In this document: in pieces, positions 4,844 to 63,728 of the stretch
Layout of the letters: each line of letters opens with the position of its first letter
How positions within the stretch are numbered: the stretch's first letter is position 1
IMG/VR virus record: IMGVR_UViG_3300033186_000010
Location: 1-64,000 of that record
DNA: 64,000 nucleotides
Reading direction: 5' to 3' (one strand)
DNA from: a virus
The notes under the pieces: generated by a model
Told to the model about the DNA's origin: nothing
The model's input: the letters and a program-made list of their open reading frames with translations, nothing else
Databases searched by the model: none
Program-made: the position numbers and the translations under genes

Positions 4844-5857
4844 ATGAAAGTACTTGGCGTATGCGGGGGTAATGGCGTTTTGCTATACCCCTTTAGGAAA
4901 TATCTAATAGGAAATATAGAACCCAGATCAGCCTTCAAAACCCCTGACAATATACAATGGAAACTAAACTTCGGTGACATTCCCTTAGAATATGAACTGG
5001 ATGCTATACCTTTCAATGGTGAAAATCCAGATGTCATTATTGGAGCTCCCGATTGTGGCCATTCATCTATCTTATCTTATTCTCGAGCTAAGAAACTTGG
5101 AGATCCTACAAAAAACGATTCTCTAAACATGTTTTTTGCCTCACTATGGCTTTACAAACCCAAAGCATTCTTAATGGAAAATCTCCCAGTAATGTTACAA
5201 AACCTTGGCGATGAGAGATTAACGGAACTTAAGAAGGAATATCATTTGGTGATTTTTAAGGATTCTGTATCAAAATTTGGAAACTCTCAAATTACGAGGG
5301 AGAGGTTGGTAATAATCGGAGTAAATAGGCAAAGTCTAGTAAACGCTAGAAGAGTAACTAAACTTTTTAAAAGAATTTATCCAGTTAGGGAGTTAAAGAC
5401 TTCTAGCGAGCTAATAAACGACCTACCTTTTGAGAATAAGTTCTTCGGTCAAATAAGGGAATCTGATGATACTGTGGTTTGCATGTCCTACAAAGGCAAA
5501 AAACTTAACTTAGGTGAGGTAAGGGAAATCTGGAATAATGAATATGAAGGCCAGAAACAATGGGCTATGCCGGGAACCAAAATGAAAAACCTTCCCGGTG
5601 TCTATAGGAACTTACCAGACCAACCCCCAAAAACAGTTAGGAAACAGAACAGGCAATTTACTCCAGAAGGTTATCAAATGTCACCGAGGGAAATGGCTAG
5701 AATTCAGGGAGTACCTGACAAATTTAAGATTTGGATAGACCTGGAAAGACTAGGTTACTCAATCAATAAGGGACGGGTTACTGTAACCAAATGTCCCCCT
5801 TACGAAATCGGAAGATGGTTTTACAAACAACTTAAAAAGTCGGAAATATGGAAGTAA
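4844..5857 (+). CDS. DNA (cytosine-5)-methyltransferase-like protein
   Basis: Motif I LGVCGGNG, motif IV-like GAPDCGHSS, motif VI LMENLP, motif VIII QITRERLVIIG, C-terminal SPREMARIQGVPDKF. Confidence 0.8.
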   Translation: MKVLGVCGGNGVLLYPFRKYLIGNIEPRSAFKTPDNIQWKLNFGDIPLEYELDAIPFNGENPDVIIGAPDCGHSSILSYSRAKKLGDPTKNDSLNMFFASLWLYKPKAFLMENLPVMLQNLGDERLTELKKEYHLVIFKDSVSKFGNSQITRERLVIIGVNRQSLVNARRVTKLFKRIYPVRELKTSSELINDLPFENKFFGQIRESDDTVVCMSYKGKKLNLGEVREIWNNEYEGQKQWAMPGTKMKNLPGVYRNLPDQPPKTVRKQNRQFTPEGYQMSPREMARIQGVPDKFKIWIDLERLGYSINKGRVTVTKCPPYEIGRWFYKQLKKSEIWK

Positions 5858-7312: not shown

Positions 7313-8790
7313 CTGACAGGTTAATAAAAAGGGGTTTAACGAAGACGGAATTTGAGTCCCTGCGTAAAGTTAAGCAAGATCCTTACTACTTCTCGAATTT
7401 CATTTACGTTATTAACCCTGTTCACGGTAGGGTACCTTTTGGGCTCTACCCATACCAAAAGAGAACACTTTGGTATTTCCTTACAAAGAGATTTAATATA
7501 GTTCTTAAGTTCCGGCAGGCTGGGCTTACAGAGCTTATTTCCATGTATTGCCTATGGCTGGCAATGTTTCACAACAATAAGAATATCCAGATTATATCCA
7601 TCAAGGATAGGGTAGCTAAGAAGGTACTTAAGAAAATCAAATTCATGTACCGGAACCTACCCGATTATATGCAAGTTGCGGTAGTAAATGGTAGAGCCGG
7701 AGAATATGGGACTTCTACTGAAATGGAATTTGCAAATGGGTCACTAATTACTTCTATCCCAACTACGGAGGATGCGGGTAGATCGGAAGCTGTATCACTT
7801 TTGGTAATTGACGAGGCGGCAATTGTACGCTGGGCCAATACCATTTGGGCTGCAGCTTTCCCGACGTTATCAACTGGGGGATCAGCGATTATTAACTCTA
7901 CTCCTTACGGGGTAGGTAACTGGTTCCACTCTACTTGGGTAGATGCGATTGCAGGAGGTAACGAGTTTAACCCCATTCGATTACACTGGCAAATGCACCC
8001 TGAAAGGGATCAAAATTGGTATGATACCATGGCATCCGGTTTGGGGCCAAGAAGAACGGCACAGGAAATTGATGGTGACTTCTTATCTTCAGGTCACACA
8101 GTATTTGACTTGGAGGATATCAAGGCTATTGAGGATATGCTTACTGAGTGGGAAGCAATTGAGAAACGTCGTAATGGTACTTTAGTAATCACCGATCGAC
8201 CTAAACCAAATACTTATTATTATATCGGAGCTGACGTTGCAACTGGTAGGTCACGAGATTACTCAGCATTTAGTATTATGGACCGTGAAGGTAACGAATG
8301 CGGGTACTATAAAGGTAAAATCCCAGTTGGGGAATTTGCCGACCTACTTATGGAATGGGGAAGGTATTTCAATAATGCCCTCATCGCTCCGGAAACCAAT
8401 GATATTGGTTTAGCAGTAACCACCAAAATCCAAGAATCTGGATATCCTAATCTCTACTACACAAAACAATTCCTTAAAAAGAAAGGTAAGAGTAAACCAG
8501 AAGAACAACTGGTACCAGGTTGGTTAACAACCGGTGCTACTCGTCCGGTTATTATCGATGCTTTGGAGGATGATGTTAGGAGAGAATTGGTAACCATCAA
8601 GGACCCATTCTTTGTTCAGGAGGCATATACCTTTATTTATAATAACAATAATAAAGCTATTGCCCTTGGGAAAGATGAAGCGAAGGATGATGATGATGAG
8701 TATTACACTGATGATGCAATACTGGCTAAATCAATAACAAACCACATTCGTAAATCACCTTTAAGAACTTCGGTAATGACACCGAGATAA
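7303..8790 (+). CDS. terL: terminase large subunit
   Basis: Walker A-like LKFRQAGLTE, Walker B LLVIDEAA, C-terminal RNase H-like nuclease region IGADVATGRSRDYSAF. 495 aa, immediately upstream of a portal-sized gene. Confidence 0.9.
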   Translation: MAVADRLIKRGLTKTEFESLRKVKQDPYYFSNFIYVINPVHGRVPFGLYPYQKRTLWYFLTKRFNIVLKFRQAGLTELISMYCLWLAMFHNNKNIQIISIKDRVAKKVLKKIKFMYRNLPDYMQVAVVNGRAGEYGTSTEMEFANGSLITSIPTTEDAGRSEAVSLLVIDEAAIVRWANTIWAAAFPTLSTGGSAIINSTPYGVGNWFHSTWVDAIAGGNEFNPIRLHWQMHPERDQNWYDTMASGLGPRRTAQEIDGDFLSSGHTVFDLEDIKAIEDMLTEWEAIEKRRNGTLVITDRPKPNTYYYIGADVATGRSRDYSAFSIMDREGNECGYYKGKIPVGEFADLLMEWGRYFNNALIAPETNDIGLAVTTKIQESGYPNLYYTKQFLKKKGKSKPEEQLVPGWLTTGATRPVIIDALEDDVRRELVTIKDPFFVQEAYTFIYNNNNKAIALGKDEAKDDDDEYYTDDAILAKSITNHIRKSPLRTSVMTPR

Positions 8791-33118: not shown

Positions 33119-33397
33119 ATGGACGGATTCATTAACTACCTGGAAGTCTTTTCCGAGAAATTATATCCTGTATTACAAAAACATTTCCTATCTGGGTCAG
33201 GTGGGATTGGGGGTATAGTTTATGGCCTTAATTCAAAAGTAATCCTATTGGATATTACATTACCTGGCCTCACCGATGCAATCATATTGGCAGCAGTGGG
33301 TTCATTAATTGGTATCATAGTGGGAGAAATATATAAAGGGTTAAAAAAACTCTTTAAATCTCTTTGGAAATCACTAGTAAATAAATTAAGAAGATAA
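33119..33397 (+). CDS. small membrane protein; holin candidate
   Basis: 92 aa with two hydrophobic segments and a basic C-terminus KGLKKLFKSLWKSLVNKLRR. Confidence 0.35.
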   Translation: MDGFINYLEVFSEKLYPVLQKHFLSGSGGIGGIVYGLNSKVILLDITLPGLTDAIILAAVGSLIGIIVGEIYKGLKKLFKSLWKSLVNKLRR

Positions 33398-35142
33398 TGT
33401 CAACTAATTCACGACAGTTTAATAAGTACAAAGATCCAGTACTATCCTTCGATAGATTACTGGAGAGGGCTGGGATTATGCCTCCTGGAAGATACCGAGG
33501 CTTTGATACCATAGCTCCATCTGCTAGCCCTGTATCAGGGAAGATAGCTATTAAACTACAGCATACAACATCGGGGGTACAGGTAATAACCCAGTCAGGT
33601 ACACTTAGTGATCTTATTGGAATTGCCATAACCCCACAAGGGACAATTATACATGAGGAGGGAGAACTTGATCTTCCTTCTCTTGTTGTTGATTTTAACC
33701 AAGGTACTAAAGCTCGTAGGGATATCCTGGTATTGGAACATACCTATCAGGATAATATCCCAGGTGAGAATCCTCCAACCTACCTAATCATAAAAGGTAC
33801 ACCGGCGAATACTCCAGTTGAGCCATCCTTAACTAACCCAGATACTCAATTAATCTTGGGCTATATCGATGTACCGATAAACTCAACCACAGTTAGTGAT
33901 ATATACTATCACCCTGCAGTGGTACCTGAGTTTTCAAAGTCCGGTAGGATAACGGCACTGGAAGATGTATTTGATAAAGCTGCTACTCTTCAAAAGATAG
34001 GTACCCACAATGTAAATGTTTACGAGGGTATAACCAATGTGGAGGGAGAGGGTACATCTATTTATGATGATGCTACCAACCAGCTAAAAATACACGATGA
34101 TGGTAATATATTTAAGTTAGCTGCTGATATCCCATCTGGTGCTATGATTAAGCATATCTACCCAGAGACGGGGAATTGGCTTAGACCAAATACAATTATC
34201 TTTGTAGTAAATAACTCGACTAAACCTGTAAGATTAGTTGAGGGGGGTAATATTAAAATACTAGCAGATGGTACTACAGACCACCCACAAGGGCTAACTC
34301 TAAAGGGTCCACATGGGGCCATAGCATTAGCCTACAACTTGGGGGCTTGGGTACCAGCTCACTCCTATATACAAAGGCAATTGAGATACTTAAGAGAGGA
34401 AGTAGACAGGAAAGCTTACAGGGATCATGTCTATACCAGGGTCGAAATCGATGCTGCTCACTTAGGTATGATCGAGGCTTTAAAGAAGTGGGTAACTGAT
34501 AACTTCGAACTTAAAGGAGGAGATCCACCACCAATCCCTGTAGACATTTCTATAAACGTGGACAATAGCCAAATCGAAATACCTTCAGACCTTGTTACTC
34601 AGGACTTCGAAGTAACAGTACAAGGGGGTACAACTAACAAGTGGGAGATAGTATCTAAACCAACATGGGTCACTTTGGATAACTCAATAGGGGATGAACT
34701 ACCATCTGGATCAGCAGTTAGGGTAGATGCATCTGCAAACGATACAGGCAACGACAGAGAAGGAACCATTTCTGTAAGGTCGGTAGAAGATACTTCTAAA
34801 ACTCTAGATATCAAGGTAATTCAAAGGAGTGTAGAACTTGCGGTGGTACCCCAGTATACCGTGAAGTCAATAGGACGTGGAGGAGGAAGTTTGAGTTACG
34901 TATCTGTATCCGTGGAGGGATCTTCTCAGGGATTTACTGTTCAAACAATATACCCAGAATCTACATGGGGAACTGGCTGGATGACCGCAACACCAGGACA
35001 GCACTCTTCAGGAGCTAGGTATGTTACTATGGAGTACCTTGCGAATTCACATCCGCATTCCCGAAAAGTGCTGGTTAAATTAATATCTGAAGAAGATCCT
35101 TCAGTATCTGCAATAATTACTATAACTCAAGCGAGGAGTTAA
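33397..35142 (+). CDS. tail fiber / receptor-binding candidate with two C-terminal BACON-like domains
   Basis: 581 aa. WEIVSKPTWVTLDNS...DREGTISVRS...DIKVIQ and a second repeat WMTATPG...SRKVLVKLIS...ITITQ fit the BACON pattern. Confidence 0.5.
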   Translation: MSTNSRQFNKYKDPVLSFDRLLERAGIMPPGRYRGFDTIAPSASPVSGKIAIKLQHTTSGVQVITQSGTLSDLIGIAITPQGTIIHEEGELDLPSLVVDFNQGTKARRDILVLEHTYQDNIPGENPPTYLIIKGTPANTPVEPSLTNPDTQLILGYIDVPINSTTVSDIYYHPAVVPEFSKSGRITALEDVFDKAATLQKIGTHNVNVYEGITNVEGEGTSIYDDATNQLKIHDDGNIFKLAADIPSGAMIKHIYPETGNWLRPNTIIFVVNNSTKPVRLVEGGNIKILADGTTDHPQGLTLKGPHGAIALAYNLGAWVPAHSYIQRQLRYLREEVDRKAYRDHVYTRVEIDAAHLGMIEALKKWVTDNFELKGGDPPPIPVDISINVDNSQIEIPSDLVTQDFEVTVQGGTTNKWEIVSKPTWVTLDNSIGDELPSGSAVRVDASANDTGNDREGTISVRSVEDTSKTLDIKVIQRSVELAVVPQYTVKSIGRGGGSLSYVSVSVEGSSQGFTVQTIYPESTWGTGWMTATPGQHSSGARYVTMEYLANSHPHSRKVLVKLISEEDPSVSAIITITQARS

Positions 35143-41086: not shown

Positions 41087-41848
41087 ATGGACATCCAAAC
41101 AGCACCAAAGCTACCCGAAAAAATTGCGGAACGGGTATTATTGGGAGAAGGTTTGCCAGTATTATTCGAGTTACAGCTCGAATTAATGGCTGAATATGTT
41201 AAGGTAGAAAAGCTACCACAATGGCCTATCAATTCCCATGAACCAAAGAACCAAGTTATCCTTAAGGATTTCATTGGGAGAGTGGCTGAGGAATTAGGAG
41301 AATCATGGGAATACTATGAGAATCTGAGAGACGGTAAAATAACCATCGCAAATTTATCTGGTTTCAATGAGGAGATCGCAGATGTAACTGCATTCCTACT
41401 TGAGACCTTGATTTATGTTGGGGTAACACCTGAAGAATTACATAAAGCTATCGAACCGGATAAGGATGATGCTTTGGGTTATCTATACAATAACCCTAAT
41501 TTCCGAAGCAGGACTACTATCCCTAGAAACTTACATGAGGACAGGGATTATATCGAAGCAGGAATTGGTAGGTTTATGTATACCTCAGAATATAGTAATC
41601 ACCTAGCTAAGACTTTCTGGAATTTCAACTACCTATTACAGATGTCCAAGAATGTATTGAAAAACAAACCTTGGAAGGTACATCAGGTAATGACGGATGA
41701 AAATAAATTCCGATCAAAGCTGCTTACTGCATCAGTAGAGTTCTTCAGAATGGCTACTCGAGAATTGGAGATGTCTCCACTGGGGTTAGTCACGGTATAT
41801 TATAAAAAGAACAGAGTAAACCTGTTCAGAATTAAATCCAAGTATTAA
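41087..41848 (+). CDS. all-alpha NTP pyrophosphatase, dimeric dUTPase-like
   Basis: The acidic helices AEELGESWEY and NEEIADVTAFLLETL plus the LKNKPWKVHQ motif resemble the dimeric dUTPase/dCTPase family. Confidence 0.5.
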   Translation: MDIQTAPKLPEKIAERVLLGEGLPVLFELQLELMAEYVKVEKLPQWPINSHEPKNQVILKDFIGRVAEELGESWEYYENLRDGKITIANLSGFNEEIADVTAFLLETLIYVGVTPEELHKAIEPDKDDALGYLYNNPNFRSRTTIPRNLHEDRDYIEAGIGRFMYTSEYSNHLAKTFWNFNYLLQMSKNVLKNKPWKVHQVMTDENKFRSKLLTASVEFFRMATRELEMSPLGLVTVYYKKNRVNLFRIKSKY

Positions 41849-42723
41849 TGAAAGAGTTAAAATTCTCAAACACCCAGGAAGCTTGGGAGGGTATTAATGA
41901 ATATCTTGCCTTGAAATCGGAAGAGGTAATGGAAACAGGGGGTTCACTATATGGGCCAGAAATCATAGCCTACGACCATTACATCAAAATTAATAAGGTA
42001 TGGGTGGATCCAGAATTTGACTTCGGTTCAGTCTTCGGATATACAACTGCTAAGTGGACTAAGTTAATCAATAACTACCTCCACTTAGATTATCTTGACT
42101 TAATCAAATCGCAGATACTAGCAAGGGAGAAATCGAGAGCAACTAATTACAATATTAGTTACCTATTCGATAACTCCCATGGTTCTGGTAAAGGGTGCCT
42201 CCTTACTCTTACCTTCTCAAGAAGAGTGGATAGGGATGCACCTATTCTGTATATGACCCTGAGATCTTCTGAGGTAACTAAAAGGTTGTTATTCGATTTC
42301 CTACTAGTTCAAAGGATAGCTGAGTATGTGTACGGGAAAGATCAATGCGTTTCTTTGGAAATGTTTTGCCCAAACATATACCTAGTTGCTGAGGCCTTTG
42401 TAATGTATGATAACTACAAAAGCATTGATAAGCTATTCAGGAAAAAGAAGAAAAAGGGCCTAAGTAAATTTGAGAAAAAGATCCTGGATACCTTACACCA
42501 TTTTAAAACTGTAGACCCTAGCACGATTAAATACAAGGTCCACTTGAGAAGTGTTAATCAGTTGCAGGAAGATGAAGATGGTAAGAAGATTTCTGGTAGG
42601 AAACCTTTATTGGTAAAAAATCTTCACCTCTATAAAGAAAACATGGAGTATCCCGAAGATTGTATCAGTCCGTCTGCAAGGAAGGCTTATCGTCGAAAGC
42701 ATAATAAAACACTAGGAAAGTAA
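41848..42723 (+). CDS. divergent thymidylate-synthase-fold protein
   Basis: GKGCLLTLTF...PILYMTLRSSEVTKRLLFDFLLVQRIAEYV aligns by eye with ThyA PCHAFFQF...[31 protein letters not shown]. Other ThyA motifs are not evident. Confidence 0.4.
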   Translation: MKELKFSNTQEAWEGINEYLALKSEEVMETGGSLYGPEIIAYDHYIKINKVWVDPEFDFGSVFGYTTAKWTKLINNYLHLDYLDLIKSQILAREKSRATNYNISYLFDNSHGSGKGCLLTLTFSRRVDRDAPILYMTLRSSEVTKRLLFDFLLVQRIAEYVYGKDQCVSLEMFCPNIYLVAEAFVMYDNYKSIDKLFRKKKKKGLSKFEKKILDTLHHFKTVDPSTIKYKVHLRSVNQLQEDEDGKKISGRKPLLVKNLHLYKENMEYPEDCISPSARKAYRRKHNKTLGK

Positions 42724-42759
42724 GTACTATTCAAATCTATAACAATAAAATTAATTACT

Positions 42760-43065
42760 ATGTTGGAATTAAAAAACGTTCACGTTGGAGCAATCCAAGG
42801 AAAAAGATTATTGCTTAAAGCTACCACTCCCCCAGCTAGAGAGGGAGCTAATGATCCTAACTCAAAATCTCGTTGGGGAGAAGTTATCCAAGCTGGAGAG
42901 GATGTAGAGGGTATCAAAGTTGGGCATATGTGCATGTACCATGAGAATTCTTGTACTGAGTTCCCATTCCAAATTAAGCCAGAGAATGGTATTTCCATGA
43001 TTGAGAATTACGATATCCTAACTCAGTCGGATATCATTTATGTTGTTGACCCTAAAAATAATTAA
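42760..43065 (+). CDS. GroES-like co-chaperonin
   Basis: 101 aa. GKRLLLKA...SRWGEVIQAGEDVEGIKVGHMCMY...ILTQSDIIYVV parallels GroES DRVIVKR...TRGEVLAVG...VKVGDIVIF...IMSESDILAIV. Confidence 0.55.
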   Translation: MLELKNVHVGAIQGKRLLLKATTPPAREGANDPNSKSRWGEVIQAGEDVEGIKVGHMCMYHENSCTEFPFQIKPENGISMIENYDILTQSDIIYVVDPKNN

Positions 43066-43069
43066 TAAC

Positions 43070-43792
43070 ATGAGGATATTCAGTAGTTGCCGAGAATTGA
43101 TGTCTGAGATTATGAGAGATGTATCTGAACATGGTACAATCGTCCATCCTCAAACAATGCAAAATAAGGTAGTAGCTGATAACGAGGAGTTCCAAACTAA
43201 GGAGCTCCTTAACTACAGTTATTGCCTAACCAATAGAACTGATCAGGAGAAACTGTTCATTTCTAATCCCACTCAAAATTACCTATGGTGTCAGGAAGAG
43301 TTTAAAGAAAGGGTATCCCGTAGCTATGTTAATCCAGGTAAAGCCTGGTTGATTCGTAAAGATACTTGGGCCACATTCTTAAACTCAGAAGGTGGGTTCT
43401 GTTATACCTACAATGAGAGGTTAAACTATCGACACAATCTTAATAAGATTATCGATGAATTAAAACGTCACCCAGATTCCCGACAATGTTATTTACCTGT
43501 ATTCCATCCGGAAGATGTATCTTTCATAGGTGCAGAACGTAGAGTACCATGTACTTTGGGTTATCAATTTATTATCCGTGATAATAAACTTCATATCGTA
43601 TACTCCCAAAGATCAGCCGATGTATTTCTTCACTTTGGTAATGACATCTGGTTGGCCTGGGAACTTATGAGTTATGTGGCTAAGAGATTAGCTATAGAGG
43701 AGGGATATCTTTATCACAATATTACTTCCCTACATTCTTACAAAAGGGATTGGGAAGGTTTAAAAACCTGTATAGACGAACTCTATGAATAA
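43070..43792 (+). CDS. thymidylate synthase family enzyme (ThyA or pyrimidine hydroxymethylase)
   Basis: Start trimmed to the ATG at 43070. HPDSRQCYLPVFHP, RVPCTLGYQFIIRDNKLHIVYSQRSADVFLHFGNDI and SLHSY match the ThyA/dCMP-hydroxymethylase core motifs. Confidence 0.75.
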   Translation: MRIFSSCRELMSEIMRDVSEHGTIVHPQTMQNKVVADNEEFQTKELLNYSYCLTNRTDQEKLFISNPTQNYLWCQEEFKERVSRSYVNPGKAWLIRKDTWATFLNSEGGFCYTYNERLNYRHNLNKIIDELKRHPDSRQCYLPVFHPEDVSFIGAERRVPCTLGYQFIIRDNKLHIVYSQRSADVFLHFGNDIWLAWELMSYVAKRLAIEEGYLYHNITSLHSYKRDWEGLKTCIDELYE

Positions 43793-44087
43793 AAAGGATG
43801 AGAAGAAAATCCTAAAGGGGTATGTGAAGCTCAGGGGTAAGAAATACTTTATTACCAAAACCATTGAGGAAATGGCTGAGCTTACACAGAACCTGGCTAA
43901 GGGTATTAATAATCCAAAAGATTTGCAGGATCCAAACCTACAAGCTGAAATGGCACAGGTAAAGTTATTCCTACAAACTCTGGAGGATCATGTATTCAAT
44001 AGCCCCTTAGAGGAACAGGCCAGGAAACGTGAACGTAGAGATAAGCTCACATTATTCAATCAACGAATTAAAGAGGCTCAGAAATGA
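43785..44087 (+). CDS. small MazG-like protein candidate
   Basis: 100 aa. The EEMAELTQNLAK and AEMAQVKLFLQTLEDHV helices resemble single-domain MazG-like NTP-PPases. Weak. Confidence 0.3.
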   Translation: MNKKDEKKILKGYVKLRGKKYFITKTIEEMAELTQNLAKGINNPKDLQDPNLQAEMAQVKLFLQTLEDHVFNSPLEEQARKRERRDKLTLFNQRIKEAQK

Positions 44088-46306
44088 AATCAATCTACAA
44101 GATAATAACCAAAGAAAAACAACTTTGGCAATTAATCAGATATTGTAAGAAAACTGGTTACGCCTCAGTCGATTTCGAAACAACTACCCGAGATGATGAG
44201 GGAGCATTTTGTGATCCGGAAGGATATCCTACTATCATGGGCTGTAGCTTTCAACCGGGCAGTGGTTGGGTATTACCTTTAGGACATTTCGATTCACCTT
44301 TTAAGAAAGCCGATAAGTGGGTTAAACTATTACAGATCTTTGGTAGAGAAGTAATGGAGGATCCTAACATAGTTAAGATAGCCCACAATGCTTCATTTGA
44401 GATGAAGTGGTTCAAGAGATTCGGTATCATTCCAAAAGGTTATTGGTTTGATACCATCTTGGCTAAATATCTTTTGGATGAAGAAAGGCCACATGGTTTG
44501 AAAGAGCAGGTAGGAAGATTCTTACCTGACTTTGATGGTTATGAAGATTACGAGGGAAGTAAATTACCTTGGAATAAAAAGCCATTAGAAGGATTATCAA
44601 AGTACTGTGCATTGGACTGCGATTCTACATTAAGGTTATGGCTATACTTCGAACCAAAGCTAATGGAATTTGGCTTCTACCCGTTATTCAGAAACCTTCT
44701 GATGATGAACCTAAGAGTTCTATCGGAATCTGAGTATACGGGTATGATTGTGAATAGGGAATACCTAAAGAACTTGGTTGATACTTATGGTAAGAAAATC
44801 GAGGATTCTGAAAAAGGATTATATGACTTGAAAGTGATCAGGAAATATAATGCTAAGAAAGTTAAGAAAGCCAAGAAGCAACTTATCAAAGAAGTCAAAC
44901 AAGAGATAAAGGCACTTAAACGGGAAGAAAAAGAAGAAGACGTAGATAACTCTAGAAAGATAAAATCTCGAGAAGATAAAGTTAGCAGATATATAGCTGG
45001 GGAGTTTACTACGAAGAAGGAAAGAACTGCCGTCTCAGAATTGAATTTGGGTAGTCCTGCTCAATTAAAGGAACTGTTATACTACAGTAAGCATGGATTC
45101 CAATTTACTGAGGTCAAGGAAAAGAATAAGAAAAAGGAATGGGTAGTATCCACTGCGGAATCAGCTTTACTAAAAATCCAGAAATCCGGAGAGGATACAC
45201 ATGGGTTTGTAAAAAGGATGCTGGAACATAGAGGACTATCTAAACTGTACTCCACTAACATCAAGGGTATGTATGATATCTTGGGTGAGGATAACAGGCT
45301 TCATACTTCTTATAAAATCTTTGGTACGGTAACAGGTAGACTATCTTCTGTAGAACCTAACTTACAAAACATTCCAAGAGCAACTACCAACTCAGATATC
45401 AAACCAATGTTCAGGCCTCCAAAGGGTATGCTCATGGTGGAGTTTGACTACTCCCAAGCTGAGATGAGGGTAGTGGCTGAGATGTCTAAGGATAAAAACC
45501 TTATCGATGCATTTGCCTCGGGACTTTCACTTCACGTATACACTGCAACACGAGCTGAGTTTCCTAACCTAACTGGTGATGCTCTATATAAAAAATACGA
45601 AGAGGTATATGCGATGACCAAGGATGAAGATCATAAGGATCACATCTTCTGGACTAAACGTAAGAAAAGGGCCAAGACAATTGGATTCGGTATCTTATAT
45701 GGGCAATCGGATAAAATGTTAGCTGAAACTATTGGGTGTAGCGAAGAGGAAGCAGGACAATTCAAAAAGGACTGGTTCAAGGCTTATCCAAAGGTTGAGA
45801 AATGGATTAAAGGTCAACACAAAAAAGCCAAGAAGAATGGCTATGTAAGAACTCTATTTGGTAGGAAACGAAGATTACCAAATATCTATTCTGATATAAT
45901 CGGGATTAGGTCGGAAGCTGAGAGACAATCGGTAAATGCTCCTATTCAGGGAACATCTTCGGATTACACTCAGTTCTCAAGTATTCTAGTACGAGAGAAA
46001 CGACTACAGGGAGAATTTCCATCATACTTTCAACAATGTTATACTGTACATGACTCCTTGGGTTACTATGTCAAACCAAAAGATATCCACAAATTGGTGG
46101 GGCCAATGGTTAAGATATGTTCTAACCCCCAAACAAAGAAATGGTTTGGATTCCAGGCTAAACATGTAAACATGAAAGTAAGCTGCGAGTTGGGTCCTAC
46201 ATGGGGTAACTACCATGATTATGACAAGGATACTGATTATGTAGAATTAACCAAGAAATGGGAAATGGAACTCTACGGGGAAACCTGGGTAGAGGATTAC
46301 GATTAA
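44084..46306 (+). CDS. family A DNA polymerase with 3'-5' exonuclease domain
   Basis: Exo motifs VDFETT, HNASFEMKW, YCALDCDSTLRL. Pol motif A FDYSQAEMRV, motif B RAKTIGFGILYGQS, motif C YTVHDS. Confidence 0.9.
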   Translation: MKSIYKIITKEKQLWQLIRYCKKTGYASVDFETTTRDDEGAFCDPEGYPTIMGCSFQPGSGWVLPLGHFDSPFKKADKWVKLLQIFGREVMEDPNIVKIAHNASFEMKWFKRFGIIPKGYWFDTILAKYLLDEERPHGLKEQVGRFLPDFDGYEDYEGSKLPWNKKPLEGLSKYCALDCDSTLRLWLYFEPKLMEFGFYPLFRNLLMMNLRVLSESEYTGMIVNREYLKNLVDTYGKKIEDSEKGLYDLKVIRKYNAKKVKKAKKQLIKEVKQEIKALKREEKEEDVDNSRKIKSREDKVSRYIAGEFTTKKERTAVSELNLGSPAQLKELLYYSKHGFQFTEVKEKNKKKEWVVSTAESALLKIQKSGEDTHGFVKRMLEHRGLSKLYSTNIKGMYDILGEDNRLHTSYKIFGTVTGRLSSVEPNLQNIPRATTNSDIKPMFRPPKGMLMVEFDYSQAEMRVVAEMSKDKNLIDAFASGLSLHVYTATRAEFPNLTGDALYKKYEEVYAMTKDEDHKDHIFWTKRKKRAKTIGFGILYGQSDKMLAETIGCSEEEAGQFKKDWFKAYPKVEKWIKGQHKKAKKNGYVRTLFGRKRRLPNIYSDIIGIRSEAERQSVNAPIQGTSSDYTQFSSILVREKRLQGEFPSYFQQCYTVHDSLGYYVKPKDIHKLVGPMVKICSNPQTKKWFGFQAKHVNMKVSCELGPTWGNYHDYDKDTDYVELTKKWEMELYGETWVEDYD

Positions 46307-46317
46307 TACAAACTATT

Positions 46318-46953
46318 ATGGATGCAAAAAACATTAAAGTAGCATGCTGTGGACCATCAGGTTCAGGTAAAACAACCCTATGTCAAGGATTACAAAAAGA
46401 ACTAGGGTTAAGATTTATTCCCTCATCAGTAGGATTAATCTTTGGAGAAAGCCAAAAGAAAAAGCTTGCTGAGTTTGGGTATGAGAATAAGGGCCATCAG
46501 AATGTAATCAACATGTCTAATGCTAACCCTGAATTCGGAAAGTTATTCCAGGAATATGCTTTAGAGGCTAGGAATAGTTTAATCAGTAATGGGGCTGACC
46601 AATTAATAGTAGATAGAAGCCCGGTAGATAATGTAACCTACGCTTCTCTTCAATGCCTACACAATTGGACAGAAGAAGAATTCGAGAAGTTCTATGGATT
46701 TGCGTTGGATTCACTATGCCACTTAACCCACATCATCTACGTTAAGTCGGTATGCCCAGATATTGAGGTAAACTTCTCAAGGGTAGCTAACAAACATTAC
46801 CAACATATGGTGGATCAGGTATTTGAATACTACCTAGCTAAGATGAGCAGGGAAGCTGGTATTCATGGTCCTAAGATATTGGTAATTGATACTTGGCCAG
46901 AGAATCCAATGGACAGGGTTATTCAGGCTAAAGAGTTTATCCTAGAGGACTAA
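46318..46953 (+). CDS. P-loop (deoxy)nucleotide kinase-like protein
   Basis: Start trimmed to the ATG at 46318 (MDAKNIK). Walker A CCGPSGSGKTT and a DRSPVD motif as in dNMP/dNK-type kinases. Confidence 0.55.
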   Translation: MDAKNIKVACCGPSGSGKTTLCQGLQKELGLRFIPSSVGLIFGESQKKKLAEFGYENKGHQNVINMSNANPEFGKLFQEYALEARNSLISNGADQLIVDRSPVDNVTYASLQCLHNWTEEEFEKFYGFALDSLCHLTHIIYVKSVCPDIEVNFSRVANKHYQHMVDQVFEYYLAKMSREAGIHGPKILVIDTWPENPMDRVIQAKEFILED

Positions 46954-62217: not shown

Positions 62218-62850
62218 ATGAGTAAGAATACAGCCTATGGGATTATTCTGGTACTGGCCTTAGCAAATGTAATTGCTATATCCTGTGCTATACAGAATAA
62301 TCCTAAACAGTTCAACCTTACCGGTGAGGGATTAATTACAGAGTTCCCAACACTTGAACAAGAATCAACCGAATTCCGGATAATTAAGGATCAAGTGATC
62401 CTGGCTAAGAAGCCAAAGCCTGATGCACCAACTATTAAATGGGCCAAGGACACCCTAATTGCTCAGGCTATCTATAGAAAAATACAAGATTTGGACATTC
62501 AACATCCGGACATCGTCCTATGCCAGGTAATCCTGGAAACTGGTCACTTTTCTAGCTATGCTTATCGCCATAGAAACAACCTACTGGGGATAGGAGGAGA
62601 CTATAGTAATAACCGAAGATTCCAAAGCAAGGACGAATCTCTGGAATATTACAAAAGATGGCAGGAAAAGCTATACAACGAATCAACCAAAAAATCTACC
62701 CAATGGTCGGGTTATTACGATTTCTTGGAAAGATTATTTCAGGATAATCGTAATAGGTGGTTAAGGTACGCAGAAGACCCCAAATACGTGTATAAATTGA
62801 AACGTATCCACAGAATGGTTTTCGGGAAACCTCCTACTGCATTAGGTTAA
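62218..62850 (+). CDS. endolysin, glucosaminidase (LytD/FlgJ-type) family, with N-terminal signal/anchor
   Basis: CQVILETGHFSSYAYRHRNNLLGIGG matches the glucosaminidase active-site region (ILESGWG...NN.FGIK). N-terminus YGIILVLALANVIAISCA is hydrophobic. Confidence 0.65.
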   Translation: MSKNTAYGIILVLALANVIAISCAIQNNPKQFNLTGEGLITEFPTLEQESTEFRIIKDQVILAKKPKPDAPTIKWAKDTLIAQAIYRKIQDLDIQHPDIVLCQVILETGHFSSYAYRHRNNLLGIGGDYSNNRRFQSKDESLEYYKRWQEKLYNESTKKSTQWSGYYDFLERLFQDNRNRWLRYAEDPKYVYKLKRIHRMVFGKPPTALG

Positions 62851-63227: not shown

Positions 63228-63728
63228 ATGACACGAGTAAATTATGGAGTCCATCCATCCAAGCTAATCGATAAATTAGTTAGGGCTGAGCACAGAGAAA
63301 TCGTTAGGGTACCAAATGACTTTGCCAAACGAATGGCAATTGATCATCCTATGAATGACATCCCTCCTAGGGTATTATTAAATAAAGGCCATGTCAAATA
63401 CTTCATGGCACATGGCAAACATACCCACGAACGGCTACTTTTATTACAGGAGGAAATGATCATCAGGAAAATGAACTTTACCGATTACTCTAGTGCTTGG
63501 GATATTTACGAGGAGTATCCTGAATGGTATAATGAGGTACCACCTCAACCACATGGGTATAAAATATTACAAGAGCGATTATTTGAACGTATCGATGGCT
63601 ATGTAAAACCCAATAGGTATTTCGGTAAGGAGATATCCAAGGATGATGCTAAAAAGCTAATCATCGAACCCAATTTCGAACACACATTAAAAATGAGGCT
63701 CAACATTGATCAGAGCCTCATATACTAA
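63228..63728 (+). CDS. denV: pyrimidine dimer DNA glycosylase (T4 endonuclease V family)
   Basis: MTRVNYGVHPSKLIDKLVRAEHREIVRVPN parallels T4 EndoV [27 protein letters not shown]. 166 aa. Confidence 0.8.
   Translation: MTRVNYGVHPSKLIDKLVRAEHREIVRVPNDFAKRMAIDHPMNDIPPRVLLNKGHVKYFMAHGKHTHERLLLLQEEMIIRKMNFTDYSSAWDIYEEYPEWYNEVPPQPHGYKILQERLFERIDGYVKPNRYFGKEISKDDAKKLIIEPNFEHTLKMRLNIDQSLIY

Follow-up and report, generated by a model that had tools for sequence, protein, structure and literature searches.

Why would a phage place two genes of the thymidylate synthase (TS) fold, nucleotide pyrophosphatases, and a nucleotide kinase right among the genes of its replication machinery? This question is raised by positions 41087-46953 of a 64,000-nucleotide stretch of viral DNA (positions 1 to 64,000 of IMG/VR virus record IMGVR_UViG_3300033186_000010), which we refer to as the window and which covers most of the approximately 82.6 kb genome of an uncultured tailed phage; an identical contig is present in a public run. 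A preliminary description of the locus had proposed a pathway of pyrimidine replacement or hypermodification composed of a pyrophosphatase, a TS-like enzyme, a kinase, and a divergent TS-fold paralogue, and our analysis supports this proposal and sharpens it to cytosine as the predicted base. In our reading, to which we assign a probability of about 0.55, the locus encodes a pre-replicative, T4-type replacement of cytosine by a 5-substituted cytosine, probably of the hydroxymethyl type, inside the replication module. Phage T4 itself replaces dCTP using the dCTPase/dUTPase gp56, the deoxycytidine monophosphate (dCMP) hydroxymethylase gp42, and the deoxynucleoside monophosphate (dNMP) kinase gp1. 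What we observed directly are folds, homologies, active-site residues, synteny, and restriction to phages, centred on three genes:

41087-41848, + strand: PPase, an all-alpha nucleoside triphosphate (NTP) pyrophosphatase of the dimeric-dUTPase/T4 gp56 (dCTPase) type
41848-42723, + strand: TSdiv, an orphan, phage-restricted TS-fold protein whose active site has a cytosine-type signature and whose C-terminal tail is basic
43070-43792, + strand: TS, a TS-family, gp42/MilA-like pyrimidine C5 one-carbon transferase, predicted to be specific for dCMP

A TS-family enzyme and a pyrophosphatase predicted to act on cytosine nucleotides

The protein encoded at 43070-43792, previously described as a clear member of the ThyA/hydroxymethylase family, indeed matches Pfam PF00303 (Thymidylat_synt) at 1.5e-16, though only over profile positions 107-222 of 266, and its start lies at 43070 rather than 43040 given that the homologues begin with MRIF or MRIY. 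By sequence, it is a member of the TS family but not ThyA, because it carries Asp at the position of E. coli N177, has a truncated C-terminus, and scores below the ThyA equivalog cut-offs, and the same features set it apart from bona fide ThyA as a group. Its Asp192 aligns with N177 of E. coli ThyA and with the altered residue of the L. casei N229D mutant, an engineered dCMP methylase that is among its best PDB sequence matches, and N177D is an established switch from dUMP to dCMP specificity (PMC13326640, PMC8670742). The protein ends around 16 residues past its H.Y motif so that the approximately 45-residue C-terminal (folate-closing) segment of ThyA is missing, and it stays below every ThyA equivalog cut-off of NCBIfam (best 64.3 vs 174.6; others 34-49 vs 108-427).

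The same residues recur in 82 related loci that were recovered with a TSdiv profile and share 28-87% amino-acid identity. Asp at the N177 position is found in 81 of the 82 aligned open reading frames (ORFs) of TS partners, the remaining one being truncated before that position. C161 (Cys146 in E. coli), R181 (R166), and D184 (D169) are kept in 80-82 of these ORFs (D184 in 80) and S182 (S167) in 77, together with R158 at the position of E. coli L143 (81 of 82) and H188 at that of G173 (80-82 of 82). At the H147 position, the partner ORFs have Thr or Ser (T162 in the window) like T4 gp42, and three features of gp42-type enzymes, Asp at N177, a residue other than His at H147, and a short C-terminus, are thus present in TS. 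Moreover, tblastn with gp42 matches the TS partner in 27 loci. The AlphaFold2 (AF2) model of TS (predicted local distance difference test, pLDDT, 94) finds its best PDB match in MilA, the CMP 5-hydroxymethylase of mildiomycin biosynthesis (PDB 5jnh, 5b6d), with a TM-score (TM) of 0.81 and a root-mean-square deviation (rmsd) of 2.8 Å, followed by the dCMP hydroxylase AfhB.

Judged by the published diagnostic residues, TS is predicted to be directed at dCMP, and its predicted product is most likely of the 5-hydroxymethyl-dCMP type, with a methylase retained as the alternative. We favor the hydroxymethyl type because the C-terminus shared by ThyA and the TS of phage Xp12 is missing, because dihydrofolate reductase (DHFR) was found neither in the window scans nor among the Pfam hits for the rest of the genome, because of the structural match to MilA, and because IspD- and LicD-like genes in some relatives (see below) imply an acceptor hydroxyl.

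PPase had been recognized earlier as a dimeric-dUTPase-like NTP pyrophosphatase, an assignment that is borne out by its match to PHROG 12184 (nucleotide pyrophosphohydrolase) at 3e-15. It reaches 20.4 bits with Pfam dUTPase_2, just below the cut-off of 22.9, and orthologues do pass this profile. Across 78 orthologues, the metal-binding acidic residues E69, E72, E96, and D99 (ExxE...ExxD) are kept in at least 90% of sequences, and a KNKPWK motif as well as a C-terminal Y..K..N..R..Y motif are conserved. A hidden Markov model (HMM) of the family matches the C-terminus of T4 gp56 at 5e-11, and a PDB sequence search with the window protein gave no matches. Since human-gut relatives additionally encode a separate trimeric dUTPase that adjoins PPase, it is unlikely to be just a dUTPase, and we predict that it cleaves dCTP, possibly also dUTP, to the monophosphate. 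Cytosine, not uracil or thymine, is the targeted base that these predictions support.

TSdiv is a phage-only member of the TS fold

For the second TS-fold protein, searches against Pfam, NCBIfam, and PDB sequences gave no match, not even when a profile of 46 sequences was used; phmmer against PDB returned nothing relevant, and PF00303 was matched in Pfam searches neither by the window protein nor by any of 31 distant family members. Direct BLASTP of TSdiv against TS revealed no significant similarity, and its PHROG family is labelled "unknown function". Structure prediction from 46 homologues gave a TS fold (AF2, pLDDT 92.6, predicted TM-score 0.88), in agreement with the previous assignment of a strongly divergent TS-fold protein rather than one outside this fold, and all of the top 50 Foldseek matches in PDB belong to the TS superfamily (TM 0.39-0.54). 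The closest structures are those of AfhB (E 4e-5, probability 1.0), T4 dCMP hydroxymethylase, and MilA; by its model, TSdiv is a TS-fold protein nearest to enzymes specific for dCMP or CMP.

An hhalign alignment with the TS family places GKGC117 of TSdiv on PC161, R139-S-S-E142 on R181-S-A-D184, and D150 on D192, which corresponds to C117=C146, R139=R166, E142=D169, and D150=N177 in the numbering of ThyA. The TS-family HMM reproduces this register on TSdiv ORFs, and Arg and Asp lie 11 residues apart, exactly as R166 and N177 do, so that weak profile statistics together with the spacing support this register. Among family members that are 15-29% identical to the window protein, K69, Y77, C117, R139, and D150 are invariant and N17, Y65, W70, and E142 nearly so. 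This conservation of Cys, Arg, Glu, and Asp argues for a live active site that would bind a cytosine nucleotide.

The last 40 residues of TSdiv proteins are basic (median net charge +5 vs +1 for the TS partner; 42600-42723 in the window), and AT-hook-like GRP motifs occur in three members (P0234, P0250, P0270). This tail hints at a possible association with DNA or the replisome. No natural fusions of TSdiv with TS or PPase were found among the long family members, whose extra length is low-complexity basic tail.

One candidate identity could be discarded for both TS-fold proteins: Asn at the D169 position is diagnostic of 5-hydroxy-dCMP synthases (PMC13326640), and this signature is absent from TS, which keeps Asp184, and from TSdiv, which has a nearly invariant Glu142 instead.

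When 1.84 billion representative proteins were searched exhaustively with an HMM, TSdiv formed only 188 clusters at 50% identity. In the genomes of 185,579 cellular species, there were just two matches, both on 77-82 kb contigs of metagenome-assembled genomes (MAGs; CALNCH010000036.1 and CALFLM010000093.1, binned as a Spirochaetaceae MAG and a Romboutsia MAG), and both contigs are almost certainly mis-binned whole phage genomes. The TSdiv family is phage-only.

A conserved and mobile gene set

In all 82 related loci, TSdiv is directly followed by a D177-type TS (that is, one with Asp at the N177 position), with PolA next in 80, and PPase lies upstream of TSdiv in every locus whose contig reaches far enough. 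The stop codon of PPase overlaps the start of TSdiv (TAATG) in the window and also in several distant loci. Based on this strict linkage and translational coupling, we predict that TSdiv works in the same pathway as its neighbors. With synteny across 82 loci, the grouping of genes at 41087-46953 is far from chance.

The order PPase-TSdiv-TS is also found in distant phages whose TSdiv is only around 15-20% identical and whose replication machinery is different, where it adjoins either a RepB-primase/UDG-PolA module or PolIII-alpha; one distant contig encodes PPase and TSdiv with no TS within its 10 kb. The two TS-fold genes and the gp56-like PPase form a conserved mobile gene set. The relatives of the window phage itself are metagenomic contigs of 75-85 kb, with only very distant kin in GenBank. 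Among cultured phages, the full set is encoded by ten phages of Clostridium perfringens (including P21, CP3, CPD4, CPAS-15, and Clo-PEP-1), by Yersinia phage P744 (vB_YenM_P744), where a kinase is directly upstream of PPase, and by Serratia phage Tlacuache, in which it was verified; the Serratia phages Serbin and Opt-155 matched the TS query only. Pseudomonas phage STP12 has TSdiv followed by TS without a match to the PPase HMM, its TSdiv lying around 1.2 kb from the start of the record.

Annotations of these genes vary, with the TSdiv orthologue labelled "pyrimidine hmase synthase" in the GenBank record of P744 and "colanic acid biosynthesis glycosyltransferase" in that of CPAS-15. In Tlacuache (NC_074757, L089), an unannotated ORF of a dCMP-family deaminase directly follows TS at around 7365-7829 (+ strand), where the record annotates a small gene on the opposite strand (gp40).

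The gene set occurs in two variants. The subclade of the window has a Cpn10 gene between the TS-fold genes and lacks a deaminase, and around 32 loci together with the Serratia and Yersinia phages have a dCMP-family deaminase between TS and PolA. In a group of human-gut relatives (MT121964-like; L080 7400-13575, L001, L079, L081, and L082), TSdiv is present as two tandem paralogues that are 35% identical, a duplication that hints at diversification, and the genes between PPase and PolA are in this order:

trimeric dUTPase
TSdiv
TSdiv
D177-type TS
IspD-like cytidylyltransferase (Pfam 1e-26)
LicD-family transferase (Pfam 8e-39)

This IspD/LicD pair resembles a CDP-ribitol synthase and a ribitol-phosphate (or phosphocholine) transferase by analogy, and its position suggests phospho-alcohol decoration of a hydroxyl-bearing DNA base in these phages. 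An intein that contains a homing-endonuclease domain of the HNH/NUMOD type splits their PolA (L080 13696-16974, + strand).

Our literature searches gave no information about DNA modification or TSdiv in MT121964, AfhB/HY126, the Clostridium phages, or P744, and the paper on phage P744 contains nothing about its TSdiv orthologue. While the general type of pathway, composed of a dCTPase, a TS homologue, and a kinase, is already known, the TSdiv family, its obligate pairing with a truncated TS of the Arg143/His173/Asp177 type and a gp56-like PPase, and the mobility of this set appear to be undescribed in the literature that we searched.

Proposed pathway and the evidence that weighs against it

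All seven + strand ORFs of the block were found where the preliminary description had located seven consecutive genes, and each of its gene assignments stands. Besides the three genes introduced above, these are:

42760-43065, + strand: Cpn10/GroES-like co-chaperonin, matched by the HMM of its syntenic gene family at 3e-7
43785-44087, + strand: small MazG-like NTP pyrophosphatase, PHROG 2245 (NTP-PPase) at 2.4e-8
44084-46306, + strand: family A DNA polymerase with 3'-5' exonuclease, Pfam DNA_pol_A at 2.4e-84 and DNA_pol_A_exo1 at 1.5e-18
46318-46953, + strand: P-loop kinase of the dNK/TMPK type, Pfam dNK with 27.8 bits (cut-off 27) and PHROG 2107 (thymidylate kinase) at 3.8e-12

The block is tightly packed and co-directional inside the replication module, in which a DnaB-like helicase, a primase, and a ResIII helicase precede it and a gp32-like single-stranded DNA-binding protein, RecA/UvsX, FEN, and SbcCD follow, and we found no excess of promoter- or terminator-like sites within 41087-46953. 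The P-loop and a DR motif of the kinase are conserved in 56 orthologues.

In the pathway that we propose, the substrates, the product, the order of steps, and any complex are inferred from sequence, structure prediction, and synteny. First, the gp56-like PPase would cleave dCTP to dCMP, which would exclude canonical cytosine from phage DNA and at the same time supply the substrate for the next enzyme. The gp42/MilA-like TS would then transfer a one-carbon unit onto C5 of dCMP, with methylene-tetrahydrofolate as the donor, most likely yielding 5-hydroxymethyl-dCMP. The kinase encoded at 46318-46953, a predicted functional analogue of T4 gp1, would phosphorylate this modified dCMP and, together with the NDP kinase of the host, bring it to the triphosphate, which the adjacent family A polymerase would incorporate and would thus have to accept. 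TSdiv, a second TS-fold enzyme that is predicted to be active, may bind a cytosine nucleotide with Cys117 attacking C6, and its likeliest role would be to make or remodel a 5-substituted dCMP, either alone or in a complex with PPase and TS. The Cpn10-like protein probably stands outside this chemistry and the small MazG-like protein would be accessory.

Several observations weigh against this scheme. The residue at the L143 position of TS is Arg158, which is neither acidic as in hydroxymethylases, where this residue is thought to admit water (PMC13326640), nor hydrophobic as in ThyA. In around 32 loci as well as in Serratia and Yersinia phages, a dCMP-family deaminase lies between TS and PolA, a gene order reminiscent of the Xp12-type scheme of 5-methylcytosine and a 5-methyl-dCTP deaminase (bioRxiv 10.1101/2024.12.05.627091). 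For TSdiv, the profile match to TS is weak when taken alone (hhalign probability 5%), the conserved Arg pair R126'/R127' of the partner subunit is lacking (aligned segment S..YN), and of the H207/Y209 motif that contacts the deoxyribose, the His is replaced and only the Tyr is kept; given that this Arg pair and His are missing, its ligand may not be a free dNMP. Furthermore, no recognizable glycosyl- or other group-transferase was found in the window scans, and the window encodes a C5 DNA methyltransferase (4844-5857, see below) that would paradoxically be left without a substrate if every C5 were blocked.

Competing explanations

Departing furthest from known chemistry, TSdiv could tentatively be seen as a new branch of the TS fold that makes a cytosine derivative so far undescribed in DNA, or without which such a derivative would not form, an idea that we regard as possible rather than probable. 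Its Cys117 might add to C6 of dCMP or of 5-hydroxymethyl-dCMP, and the resulting exocyclic-methylene intermediate could then be trapped by a nucleophile other than water or hydride. Alternatively, TSdiv might act on cytosine in DNA at the replication fork, an idea prompted by its basic or AT-hook-bearing tail and the missing contacts to the phosphate and 3'-OH of a dNMP. In that event, the three genes PPase-TSdiv-TS would make up a mobile module that serves to produce a novel base, which in some gut phages may be further decorated by phospho-alcohol transfer of the IspD/LicD type.

Another explanation takes phage Xp12 as its model, with TS as a dCMP methylase that replaces cytosine by 5-methylcytosine, deamination of 5-methyl-dCTP to give dTTP wherever a deaminase is present, and TSdiv as an accessory protein. 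D177-type TS homologues that lie beside a dCMP-family deaminase and PolA on "modified" metavirome contigs made 5-methyl-dCMP in 5 of 7 tests (bioRxiv 10.1101/2024.12.05.627091), and the order TS-deaminase-PolA of the 32 related loci and the Serratia and Yersinia phages fits this precedent. In our own alignment, Xp12 has Asn at the L143 position, so the rule for this residue is not strict. However, the window TS belongs to a subclass without the ThyA-like C-terminal segment that the Xp12 TS has kept, its best structural match is a hydroxymethylase, and the deaminase is absent from the window's own subclade. Xp12 and its genus do have a DHFR gene (PMC9206674), but none was found in the related loci or in the genome, inside or outside the window. 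Xp12 moreover has neither TSdiv nor a gp56-like PPase, and the IspD/LicD genes of relatives imply an acceptor hydroxyl. What leaves this 5-methyl pathway a minor but real chance of being correct is Arg158 of TS, which occupies the L143 position, together with the deaminase that many of the relatives encode.

The locus could also hold a complete T4-style set in which TS is the dCMP hydroxymethylase (gp42) and TSdiv a divergent, td-like enzyme making dTMP from dUMP. The gene content mirrors gp56, gp42, td, and gp1, plus the cd deaminase in many relatives, we found no other ThyA or ThyX in the genome, and TSdiv keeps equivalents of the catalytic Cys, R166, Y94, and W80. We nevertheless consider a td-like TSdiv improbable, given that it has an invariant Asp at N177, a residue with which dUMP is excluded in all characterized TS enzymes (PMC13326640), that D169 is replaced by Glu, and that the R126'/R127' pair and H207 are absent. 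Its closest structures are cytosine-specific enzymes and not ThyA, and two TSdiv paralogues as in some phages are not needed for housekeeping synthesis of dTMP.

Slightly less credible still is a role of TSdiv as a structural or regulatory partner, be it as the pseudo-dimer mate of TS or as a scaffold through which PPase and TS would be anchored at the replisome or on DNA. Dimerization is obligate for TS enzymes, TSdiv always adjoins TS and is translationally coupled to PPase, the Arg pair that one TS subunit donates to the other at the dimer interface is missing from TSdiv, and its basic tail, which in some members bears an AT-hook, would suit a tether; but invariant or nearly invariant Cys117, Arg139, Glu142, and Asp150 at 15-29% identity are the pattern of a working active site, and one contig encodes PPase-TSdiv with no adjacent TS. 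Mere housekeeping of the nucleotide pool (dUTP sanitation and dTMP supply) with canonical virion DNA, as in the many phages that have a dUTPase, ThyA, and a kinase without DNA modification and as the database annotation of TS as "thymidylate synthase" would have it, is very improbable, since the Asn that dUMP requires is missing from both TS-fold proteins, TS remains below all ThyA equivalog cut-offs, relatives encode a separate trimeric dUTPase, and a statistical association links D177-type TS genes to contigs with modified cytosine (PMC8670742).

Other genes and sequence composition of the window

The Cpn10-like protein has no direct Pfam match and gave no matches in a PDB sequence search, and its assignment as GroES-like therefore relies on transitive homology via the syntenic family, whose own Pfam match is Cpn10 at 5e-15 and which occupies the same position between the TS-fold genes in about 28 loci. 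The small MazG-like gene was detected by tblastn in 3 of 82 loci, all of them closest relatives. Two further genes at the far end of the window had previously been connected to the pathway:

2052-2918, - strand: protein with PF04447 (MazZ-type dATP/dGTP pyrophosphohydrolase), Pfam 2.3e-13
4844-5857, + strand: atypical C5 DNA cytosine methyltransferase, Pfam PF00145 at 3.5e-15

Both genes are real, though at most candidate members of the pathway, and neither was seen in the ±10 kb flanks searched around related loci. The PF04447 domain spans residues 77-130 of a 288-residue protein. A Z-genome (PurZ/MazZ/DatZ) was ruled out as an interpretation of this gene because PurZ turned up neither among the scanned ORFs of the window nor among the Pfam hits precomputed for the remaining genome. 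The methyltransferase scores 30.6 bits with NCBIfam dcm against a cut-off of 100 and has PDCG instead of PPCQ in motif IV, with ENL and QxxRxR present.

No glycosyltransferase, TET/JBP, carbamoyltransferase, DHFR, ThyX, or deaminase was found by Pfam, PHROG, or tblastn scans of the window, of which the Pfam scan left out a block of structural ORFs at around 12-33 kb, and none of these six enzyme types is among the Pfam hits precomputed for the 82.6 kb genome beyond the window either. The same holds for ThyA, which besides the TS-fold genes of the block was absent from the window ORFs scanned by Pfam and tblastn and from the precomputed Pfam hits elsewhere in the genome. Other genes of the window encode a 581-residue protein with a weak precomputed match to a BACON domain (33397-35142, + strand), which hints at a Bacteroidota host as the only host indication, a glucosaminidase-type lysin (62218-62850), and a pyrimidine-dimer DNA glycosylase similar to T4 endonuclease V (63228-63728, + strand; PHROG 2e-19, Pfam Pyr_excise 3e-5).

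The composition of the window is skewed, with observed/expected (O/E) ratios of 0.51 for CpG, 0.19 for GCG/CGC, 0.03 for GCGC (3 sites in 64 kb), and 0.02 for CGCG, while CCGG and GGCC are normal and TG/CA is not in excess. GCG is also rare in phages with the gene set that infect very different hosts (O/E 0.05 in P21, 0.39 in Tlacuache at 50% GC, and 0.43 in P744) and not depleted in T4 (1.03) or Xp12 (0.88), a comparison made without host-matched control phages and to which host bias may contribute. The most under-represented 4-bp palindrome of the window is GATC (223 observed vs 332 expected from a Markov model, z about -6), which is nearly absent in the relatives L010, L084, L087, and L089 (O/E 0-0.02).

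Significance and comparison with known systems

Base replacement in phage DNA defeats restriction and CRISPR defenses, and the enzymes involved serve epigenetic sequencing and synthetic biology. The TS fold is now known to yield methyl, hydroxymethyl, and flavin-dependent hydroxyl products and is thus chemically more versatile than thought. To this picture, our analysis adds a TS-fold family of considerable size that is restricted to phages and goes unnamed in profile libraries, as well as a genetic lock between this family, a gp56-like predicted dCTPase, and a subclass of putatively dCMP-directed TS with Arg143/His173/Asp177. Because the same gene set occurs in marine and gut metagenomic phages as well as in cultured phages of C. 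perfringens, Serratia, and Yersinia (and TSdiv followed by TS in Pseudomonas), which base it is and what TSdiv does are directly testable in cultured hosts. Phages of C. perfringens are under development for phage therapy, and modified cytosine in cultured phages would, if true, matter both for sequencing them and for their therapeutic use.

Compared with T4, the window shares an all-alpha PPase with the C-terminal motif of gp56, a short TS with the catalytic Cys, Asp at N177, Thr at H147, and no ThyA C-terminus, and a P-loop kinase among replisome genes. Unlike in T4, the L143 position of TS is occupied by Arg rather than by Asp/Glu and the G173 position by His, the kinase looks like dNK/TMPK and not demonstrably like gp1, we found no gene for a glucosyltransferase, and the polymerase belongs to family A instead of family B. 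Most of all, the window phage has TSdiv as an extra, obligatory TS-fold gene that T4 lacks. MilA, which owes its cytosine specificity to Asp at the N177 position (PMC13326640), is the best structural match of the TS model and also among the top matches of TSdiv, but its substrate is a ribonucleotide, it belongs to the biosynthesis of a Streptomyces antibiotic, its residue at the L143 position is Asp, and sequence identity is only 18-20%.

AfhB, RB69 gp48, and DLP3 gp80 are flavin-dependent 5-hydroxy-dCMP synthases with a TS fold (PDB 9iqu, 9iqc; PMC13326640). Enzymes of this type are short, phage-encoded, and dCMP-specific, and they demonstrate that the TS fold supports non-folate chemistry (PMC13326640). 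AfhB is the top Foldseek match of TSdiv (E 4e-5) and a strong match of the TS model, but its D169N exchange is found in neither window protein (Asp184 in TS, Glu142 in TSdiv), and genes for arabinosylation or UDP-sugars are not present in the window phage.

E. coli or L. casei ThyA (EC 2.1.1.45) shares with the window proteins the fold, the catalytic Cys, and equivalents of R166-S167, D169, and Y94, as well as PF00303 in the case of TS, which however has Asp for N177, lacks around 45 C-terminal residues, and scores far under the equivalog cut-offs; TSdiv has no detectable sequence match at all. The system of Xp12 and Pamexvirus finally combines a TS homologue that is a 5-methyl-dCMP synthase with a dCMP-family deaminase, DHFR, and a PPase, and it resembles our locus in placing a D177-type TS in the replication module and, for around 32 relatives, a deaminase after TS. 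It differs in that the TS of Xp12 has retained both Gly173 and the long C-terminus of ThyA and is accompanied by an adjacent DHFR gene, and in that Xp12 encodes neither TSdiv nor a gp56-like PPase.

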